DNA from: a virus
DNA length: 64,000 nt
Reading direction: 5' to 3' (one strand)
Virus record (IMG/VR): IMGVR_UViG_3300012209_000005
Span: 51,416-115,415 of that record
The notes below the pieces were generated by a model. It saw only the letters and a list, made by a program, of their open reading frames with translations. It searched no databases and was not told the DNA's origin. Made by a program: the position numbers and the translations under genes. This document shows positions 49,977 to 50,950 of this stretch, piece by piece; the first letter of the stretch is position 1, and each line of letters opens with the position of its first letter.

Positions 49977-50312
49977 TCACGCACCACAAAACACCACTGC
50001 CTGCCCGGTAGGGCACACATACGGCAACGCGATACGCCCGCTGGCGGTTCGGAGATTACCTCTGCGCCACTGGCAACGCTAAACGCTTCACAGATACTGC
50101 GGGATGGATGTGCTCCCGGATGACCTTAACGGTCTGGGGCAACTAAGGCCCCTATAAGATCCGCACCTCAGATTACGAGGGTAAAAGTCGCATGCTCTGT
50201 GTCGGCTGCAGGTTGCATGCTAGCCCGGAAAATACCGGTGCCGGCGGGCGTATCGCGTATCACCTGCTATACCGTATGTCCTTTTAGCCGGCCGGGGATC
50301 GGGGGAGTCGTC

Positions 50313-50471
50313 ATGGACGCTCTCATGAATTCCCAGGTCGTTATCGCGCTTGTCACCCATCATGACGGCGCCACGGAAACACGCATACAGAACAAAGCGC
50401 ACATTTTGAGCACGCTGGAATCCGATGTGATCAGCGTGTCTTTCCCCGTGCTCTTGCACAACGCCAACTAG
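50313..50471 (+). CDS. 52-aa protein (module 3)
   Basis: GGGGGAG RBS; ORF fills the loop of the stem. Confidence 0.55.
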   Translation: MDALMNSQVVIALVTHHDGATETRIQNKAHILSTLESDVISVSFPVLLHNAN

Positions 50472-50563
50472 CCGCATAAGTTCCGGCCGGCTAAATGGGC
50501 ATACGGGTAGCAGGCCCATTACCGCGTGTCCTTTTAGCCGGCCAGCCGGATTGTGAGTATCAC

Positions 50564-50692
50564 ATGACCAATCCTGTCTGCGGGCGTTGCCGGGAGCGTC
50601 TCACCCGTCACTGCCCGGAATGTAGCGCATGCCCGGGGCAGGAATGCCCCTACTGGTGTGCGCTCAATGACAACCCAGTCCGGAGGAGGTGA
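50564..50692 (+). CDS. 42-aa Cys-rich peptide (module 4)
   Basis: CGRC..HCPECSACPG.ECPYWC. Confidence 0.5.
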   Translation: MTNPVCGRCRERLTRHCPECSACPGQECPYWCALNDNPVRRR

Positions 50693-50697
50693 ACACT

Positions 50698-50868
50698 ATG
50701 ATCACCGTGACCCGCCGTTATTTCAACGGGAACACCTACGTCACCGTTCACAGCAAGACACGCCGCAACCCGTGGCGCGCCATCGGTACCAACCAGGGTA
50801 CCCGCGGCATTCGAGCGGGACTCAAAGTCAACCTGTACCCGTCGGCGAACTGGCGTTACAGCCACTGA
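50698..50868 (+). CDS. 56-aa basic protein MITVTRRYFNG... (module 4)
   Basis: Strong RBS GGAGGAGGTG; stop just before right arm. Confidence 0.65.
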   Translation: MITVTRRYFNGNTYVTVHSKTRRNPWRAIGTNQGTRGIRAGLKVNLYPSANWRYSH

Positions 50869-50950
50869 TACCAGCCGGCCGGCTAAATGGGCACGCGGTA
50901 ATGGCATTCACCCTAGCGCGTCACCTTGCGCCGGCGGAAACGAGGCATCA

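Follow-up and report, generated by a model that had tools for sequence, protein, structure and literature searches.

Gene-spanning helices tile a row of small phage genes and may act as RNA processing stalks

Two neighbouring modules in the genome of an uncultured soil phage are closed by long inverted repeats that have a core in common, though the genes that they enclose differ. The question raised by this locus is whether the repeats work as helices in RNA or as points of exchange in DNA. The window examined here is a stretch of 64,000 nucleotides, the right 64 kb of a linear IMG/VR record of 115,415 bp with a G+C content of ~66% and an estimated completeness of ~93%. The large terminase gene (32559–34313, minus strand) encodes a protein with ~31% identity to terminases of 114–115-kb Gordonia phages. 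The phage is uncultured and without a near cultured relative; its nearest terminases and its G+C content point to an actinobacterial host. ARAGORN found neither tRNA nor tmRNA genes in the window. A TROVE/Ro60 protein is encoded at 38216–40237 on the minus strand, and a recognised Y RNA was not found. In the Gordonia phage Forza (L067, 84590–91472) the Ro-like gene adjoins an array of 28 tRNAs and a tmRNA, and the studied window is unlike Forza in having the Ro-like gene and no tRNA.

The two modules, designated M3 and M4, and their arms are located as follows.

50263–50514, plus strand: module M3, closed by a long inverted repeat
50263–50295, plus strand: M3 5′ arm, made up of an outer 7 nt, a TA bulge and 24 nt that include the common 17-nt core
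50483–50514, plus strand: M3 3′ arm, beginning 11 nt past the stop codon
50516–50904, plus strand: module M4, closed by a long inverted repeat
50516–50549, plus strand: M4 5′ arm, beginning 1 nt beyond the M3 3′ arm
50871–50904, plus strand: M4 3′ arm, beginning 2 nt past the stop codon

According to the repeat finder, 22 of 24 positions are identical both between the left arms (50270–50293 and 50520–50543) and between the right arms (50483–50506 and 50875–50898). With at most one mismatch allowed, the window contains four copies of the 12-nt core where 0.22 would be expected, none of 100 shuffles reached four, and the whole 115-kb record holds no further occurrence. The M3 helix consists of an outer part of 7 bp (50263–50269/50508–50514), a TA/G asymmetric loop, and an inner part of 24 positions (50272–50295/50483–50506) with one U·G and one U·U. 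The M4 helix (50516–50549/50871–50904) has 28 contiguous positions followed by a looser inner part. Both cores contain the same U·G pair and the same U·U mismatch, so that the description of a single helix shared by the two modules, given in a first-pass annotation of this DNA, agrees with the 22/24 identity of the arms and their 17-nt core.

Within the 24-nt common part, M3 and M4 differ only at two adjacent pairs, and at these both arms have changed. The pairs are A-U/U-A in M3 and G-C/C-G in M4 (TA/TA vs CG/CG), a difference of four transitions that preserves both pairs and that would arise by chance with a probability of ~4e-4 by a rough combinatorial estimate. The covariation that the first-pass annotation had reported for the outer parts is therefore present on both arms, pair by pair. 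Further out, the arm sequences of M3 are unrelated to those of M4, yet they are complementary within each module, forming an outer stem of 7 bp in M3 and one of 6 bp in M4, which a TG-bearing form of M4 described below lengthens to 8 bp.

Duplex energies show which arms belong together. The cognate duplexes, in which each left arm pairs with the right arm of its own module, reach −61.3 kcal/mol for M3 and −60.9 kcal/mol for M4. These values are 10–22 kcal/mol better than those of the cross pairs between M3 and M4 arms (−51.2 and −38.7 kcal/mol). A local hairpin between the M3 3′ arm and the M4 5′ arm, which lie 1 nt apart, reaches −36.2 kcal/mol, and the remaining arm combinations range from −18 to −34 kcal/mol. 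The TA/CG positions are mismatched in the local hairpin and matched in the gene-spanning pairs. Because only the two cognate combinations accommodate both the TA/CG change and the private outer stems, we read the repeats as pairing across the gene and not as a local hairpin between genes. This gene-spanning pairing is real and far exceeds what chance would give. That it is also under selection is suggested by one paralogous pair inside one genome.

Five modules tile positions 49480–51185 in a row, with M3 and M4 in third and fourth place. The other three are listed here.

49480–50025, plus strand: module M1, a mismatch-free helix of 29 bp with 2 G·U, enclosing three coupled ORFs of 72, 40 and 35 aa
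50027–50258, plus strand: module M2, a 20-bp helix enclosing a 232-nt ORF-free folded domain
50911–51185, plus strand: module M5, an imperfect helix of 28 nt, enclosing a 64-aa ORF at 50951–51145

The linkers between successive modules are 1, 4, 1 and 6 nt long. We scanned the entire 115-kb record for stems with arms 60–900 nt apart, with ten block-shuffled genomes as control. All long-range stems with a score of at least 18 fall within 49480–51185; the array stems score 28, 24.5, 21.5, 19 and 18, against maxima of 0–19.5 in the shuffled genomes, which contained 0–5 stems scoring at least 16. When 1.4 kb and 4.4 kb were folded to minimum free energy without constraints, the same back-to-back closed domains appeared. 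From M1 to M5 the helices span 29, 20, 31, 34 and 28 positions, and the five duplexes have energies of −44 to −66 kcal/mol and the length of an RNase III substrate (~20 bp or more, about two turns). The non-Watson–Crick positions of the M5 helix are 2 G·U, 2 A·C and 1 other.

The placement of the arms relative to the genes is regular. They enclose a ribosome-binding site and one or more ORFs and never overlap coding sequence. The 5′ arms end 3–18 nt upstream of a Shine–Dalgarno sequence or start codon, and the 3′ arms begin 2–21 nt downstream of a stop codon. Likeness of arm sequence is confined to M3 and M4 (p < 0.0005); the M4/M5 comparison gave p = 0.018, an uncorrected value from one of ten comparisons. 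A single helix family running through M1–M5 was rejected, as only the M3 and M4 arms are alike.

The ORF-free module M2 folds into a multibranch domain of 232 nt (z = −4.4) that has no Rfam match. Rfam covariance models returned nothing at gathering score over the 64 kb, Y RNA/YrlA and tRNA-like models included, and the matches in 47000–52000 were at chance level only (E > 1). To propose M2 as a candidate partner RNA of the phage TROVE/Ro60 protein would be pure speculation.

Upstream of the array, ~2 kb (47420–49500) are without coding signal and the genes beyond are divergent, which places the array at the head of a rightward gene block. This non-coding stretch may hold one or more promoters or an origin for that block. 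It includes an AT-rich patch at ~47550–47650 and CATG-rich alternating tracts. A scan for sigma-70 promoters and terminators gave chance-level results with a model unsuited to the likely actinobacterial host. With ≤3 mismatches allowed, a near-palindrome of 16 nt, GGNAGCGAAGCTNCGC, is found 18 times, compared with 2 expected, over the range 9344–47328 with a cluster at 44978–47328. Most of these matches lie close to where genes begin, upstream of the array, and the motif is likely an operator or promoter-associated.

Given helices of this kind, we asked on which strand they would act. The folding z-scores on the plus strand are −5.7 for M3 and −6.3 for M4, and those on the minus strand are nearly as low (−5.3 and −5.5). 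Among the non-Watson–Crick positions of the five helices there are 7 independent G·U on the plus strand vs 2 A·C. This 7:2 ratio (one-sided p ~0.09) favours plus-strand RNA but is no more than suggestive. In four of the five modules the cognate duplex has its greater stability as plus strand. Since the ORFs and their ribosome-binding sites are on the plus strand, RNA of that strand is the natural carrier of the pairing.

The near-equal folding of the two strands, along with a comparison limited to one genome, would also be expected if the repeats were a functionless by-product of inverted duplication or template-switch correction, with complementarity kept by DNA repair and not by selection. 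We consider this highly improbable. The five repeats follow one another gap-free, each placed exactly outside a unit running from ribosome-binding site to stop codon and never in coding sequence, and their spacers of 187–488 nt are long for template-switch correction events. The G·U excess on the coding strand also speaks against such an origin, as does a module of the same anatomy in a distant relative (L060, see below).

The genes inside M3 and M4 are the following.

50313–50471, plus strand: M3 cargo, a 52-aa ORF with ribosome-binding site GGGGGAG
50564–50692, plus strand: M4a cargo, a 42-aa Cys-rich mini-protein belonging to a small conserved family
50698–50868, plus strand: M4b cargo, a 56-aa ORF with ribosome-binding site GGAGGAGG and GC3 of 0.79

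Local alignment of the M3 and M4 interiors at the DNA level gave a score of 17, no higher than the null (17.1 ± 2.2), and every pair of enclosed proteins scored z < 2. The cargo is thus unrelated, as the first-pass annotation had stated. The enclosed ORFs look coding: GC3 is 0.70–0.85 and above GC2, as in real genes of the same genome, and G+C by codon position in the M3 ORF is 0.55/0.32/0.74. None of the seven module proteins matches Pfam or PHROGs, and the M3 and M4b proteins are orphans that found only themselves among 5.8 billion proteins. M4a belongs to a family of Cys-rich proteins of 42–60 aa with ten invariant positions and a terminal CPYWC-type motif, and is probably zinc-binding. Long Cys-repeat proteins also score against M4a, probably spuriously. 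The family members have the coordinates given below.

Window, 50564–50692: M4a
L058, 6363–6467: M4a homologue
L064, 3001–3126: M4a homologue
L066, 3001–3075: M4a homologue

To see how the array stands in other DNA, we compared positions 49100–51600 with metagenome contigs from four soil runs (X2–X5) of three studies. Among the sequencing runs listed with this DNA, which include X1–X5 from four studies, there was no RNA run. The contigs match the window letter for letter, with a TG insertion after 50515 as the sole difference. Four soil runs thus carry identical DNA, and the array sequence is therefore not an assembly artefact. All contigs that span this point (50515/50516), one apiece from X2, X3 and X4, have the insertion. 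The inserted TG pairs with CA at 50905–50906 and brings the M4 helix to 36 positions, up from 34; we count these two additional Watson–Crick pairs in favour of an RNA helix.

The sharp edge between arms that are 22/24 identical and cargo that is unrelated could also have a DNA-level cause. The arms would then be the ends of mobile or exchangeable cassettes, whether MITE-like, integron-like or recombination linkers, and the places where one cargo replaced another. The units form a row of small orphan ORFs that lack promoters, and recombination between the two left arms or between the two right arms would, by simple reasoning, remove a single unit cleanly and keep an intact module. The machinery for such exchange is absent: the 93%-complete record lacks an integrase, a resolvase, a Y1 transposase and a reverse transcriptase. 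The tyrosine recombinase profile PF00589 found nothing in the 115-kb record while control genomes were positive, and serine recombinase, Y1 transposase and PF00078 (reverse transcriptase) searches of the record were likewise negative. The GTTRRRY box does not occur in 49480–51190, and no target-site duplications flank the arms. Every helix is single in the genome, and a search of IMG/VR for partnered arms with the 14-mer core gave 46 single chance matches, none with a partner arm. The contigs of the four soil runs, which as contigs drop rare variants, contain no deletion or inversion joints that would mark excised or inverted cassettes. Moreover, complementarity runs on into module-private sequence, unlike that of terminal inverted repeats or copied linkers, and the covariation favours the gene-spanning pairs and not an attC-like local hairpin. 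Exchange of cassettes by recombination between the direct repeats, as the first-pass annotation had suggested, is accordingly left unsupported, with no recombinase, no joints and no second copy of the helix in the genome or the collections searched.

Three specific forms of mobile DNA were rejected. An integron cassette array was dismissed on the lack of an IntI tyrosine recombinase and of GTTRRRY and on a local hairpin mismatched at the compensated pairs; a MITE or transposon on the single locus, the lack of direct repeats beside the arms, and the lack of a Y1 transposase or resolvase; and a retron msr-msd on the absence of PF00078.

Relatives bear on the same matter. A blastn search with 49400–51200 against 50,697 phage records gave no match. 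The neighbouring gene d3 (52159–52467) has homologues at 70–74% identity on short contigs and is present in identical form on a contig of 137 kb, and a contig of 16.5 kb is among those with an exact or 70–74% identical d3; a d3 profile search of genome contigs found nothing, and a neighbouring DUF7178 gene has no near relative in IMG/VR. We compared L058 and L060–L063, which have d3 homologues at 48–55% identity, and L064 and L066, which were reached through M4a (48% and 60%). The M3/M4 helix is absent from all of them (L058, L060–L064 and L066), and the right 50 kb of Forza, the nearest cultured terminase relative, has no long-range stems. L060, whose d3 is 55% identical, has one module of the same anatomy at 4268–5005. 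Between its arms (4268–4302 and 4968–5005), for which the minimum-free-energy fold gives 33 pairs, lie a ribosome-binding site, two ORFs of 121 and 78 aa that overlap, and a stop codon.

In L064, the M4a homologue stands directly upstream of a homologue of the ORF at 51612–51710, a conserved hydrophobic ORF of 32–34 aa with the start M-W/Y-P-I-I-P (L064 ~3140–3245). This adjacency implies either a gain of M4b, M5 and the ORF-free tail here or their loss in L064. Such a gene order fits the idea of exchangeable cassettes, but the gain or loss is ordinary phage mosaicism and does not require the helices. The M4a homologues in L058, L064 and L066 are not stem-flanked, which counts against cassettes defined by these arms. 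We therefore hold exchange at the arms to be improbable. The same homologues, found in other phages without helices, indicate that the helix is dispensable for M4a. A wider proposal would join the two functions: early phage genes singly enclosed in private long-range helices would be a general, undescribed layout, the arms would serve both as RNA clamps and as DNA linkers for cargo swaps, and M3 and M4 would be a single helix frame caught with two unrelated cargos. This we think rather unlikely.

The reading that we favour, and regard as on balance probable if only slightly so, is that the stems of M1–M5 are plus-strand RNA helices that serve as RNase III-type processing and end-clamping stalks in a polycistronic transcript. 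We hypothesize that the array is transcribed rightward as a single polycistronic RNA and that each 3′ arm, as it emerges, pairs back onto its own 5′ arm. This would join the sequence before the ribosome-binding site to the sequence after the stop codon, with a helix of 30–34 bp in M3 and M4. Host RNase III, whose presence is assumed, could then cut the 20–34-bp duplexes and split the row into separate RNAs, predicted to be four mini-mRNAs (M1, M3, M4 and M5) and one non-coding RNA (M2). The paired stub left by cleavage may shield both RNA ends from 5′-end-dependent RNases and 3′ exonucleases. The M3 and M4 helices would be duplicated copies of one helix frame, in which the TA/CG change and the private outer stems would prevent mispairing between the two modules.

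The single transcript, its cutting by RNase III and the stabilisation of the products are inferred parts of this model, and the first-pass annotation's view of the helix as a site of recognition or cleavage is plausible under it. Three features of the array guided the choice. An enzyme that reads shape is preferred over a sequence-specific factor because M1, M2 and M5 share no significant arm motif with M3/M4; a double-strand-specific enzyme of this kind is preferred over a translational device because the ribosome-binding sites lie outside the helices; and excision is preferred over translational control alone because the ORF-free M2 sits in the row. The record itself encodes no RNase III, dsRBD protein or RtcB. 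In Bacillus subtilis, RNase III cuts long-range intramolecular mRNA duplexes that span hundreds of nucleotides (PMC11780869).

The helices could instead be RNA without being RNase III sites, either as uncut insulators and end clamps or, in M3 and M4, as a core that binds a specific co-regulating protein. The 17-bp core with its G·U pair and conserved U·U is identical in the two modules though cargo and outer stems differ, and it could equally reflect a sequence-specific partner; cognate specificity is preserved as well. Core identity can, on the other hand, merely reflect recent duplication, and the unrelated helices of M1, M2 and M5 leave no common protein site array-wide. Ribosome-binding sites and start codons are not covered by the helices. 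Perfect double-stranded RNA of 20–34 bp would hardly escape cutting in a cell that contains RNase III. A precedent for control by pairing is icaR of Staphylococcus aureus, in which 5′–3′ UTR pairing is known to control the mRNA and to make an RNase III site (PMC3868564). Taken together, we judge an uncut or protein-bound helix unlikely.

If the helices are cut and clamp the RNA ends, as in the favoured model of RNase III-type stalks, one transcript would yield individually stabilised mini-messages and a small RNA. The processing logic of rRNA operons would thereby be applied to protein-coding micro-genes, and tiny orphan early genes could be expressed independently of their neighbours. Operon design could then also draw on the helices as natural, orthogonal insulators. 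M3 and M4, with a helix frame that would have been duplicated and re-specified by compensated changes while its cargo was replaced, would provide a testable model for the growth of such arrays.

Several known systems resemble the array in part. Integron attC arrays likewise have small promoter-less ORFs in a row with imperfect palindromes between them, and the junction of the M3 3′ arm and M4 5′ arm can be folded as an attC-like hairpin (−36 kcal/mol), but the array is without an IntI-type integrase or R-box. MITEs and the mycobacteriophage element MPME share with it the short unit, the small ORF between inverted repeats and, as a setting, actinophage genomes. The array differs from these in its single-copy units, lack of target duplication, private arms of 20–34 nt and exact abutment.

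Closer in form are small-protein mRNAs whose ends pair across the gene, as in the fbi/tac pairing of the hok family and in icaR (PMC3868564). There the pairing hides the Shine–Dalgarno sequence or other translation signals and represses, whereas the ribosome-binding sites of the array lie in the loop; unlike in these systems, no antisense RNA was seen in the array. The short local palindromes known from upstream of actinophage genes (PMC7302621) are different from gene-spanning helices. A search of the open-access literature found no account of gene-spanning helices that tile a phage transcript.

In phages T7 (R0.3–R1.3) and SP82/SPO1, a host double-strand-specific endonuclease cuts early mRNA between cistrons; the sites may share sequence within one phage, and the leftover stem stabilises the message. 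Those sites are local inter-gene hairpins, whereas the two halves of each site in the array straddle the gene or genes. The RNase III stalks of rrn 16S and 23S RNA are like the array in that flanks pair over hundreds of nucleotides in a helix of at least 20 bp, with several such stalks per precursor, and in rrn cutting frees each unit. Unlike rrn, the array belongs to a phage and holds mostly mini-mRNAs with ribosome-binding sites, its helices tile with linkers of 1–6 nt, and cleavage is predicted. By analogy, the array may be viewed as a variant of rRNA stalks and of phage early RNase III sites, in which the new elements would be that the halves of each site straddle genes and that the sites tile.
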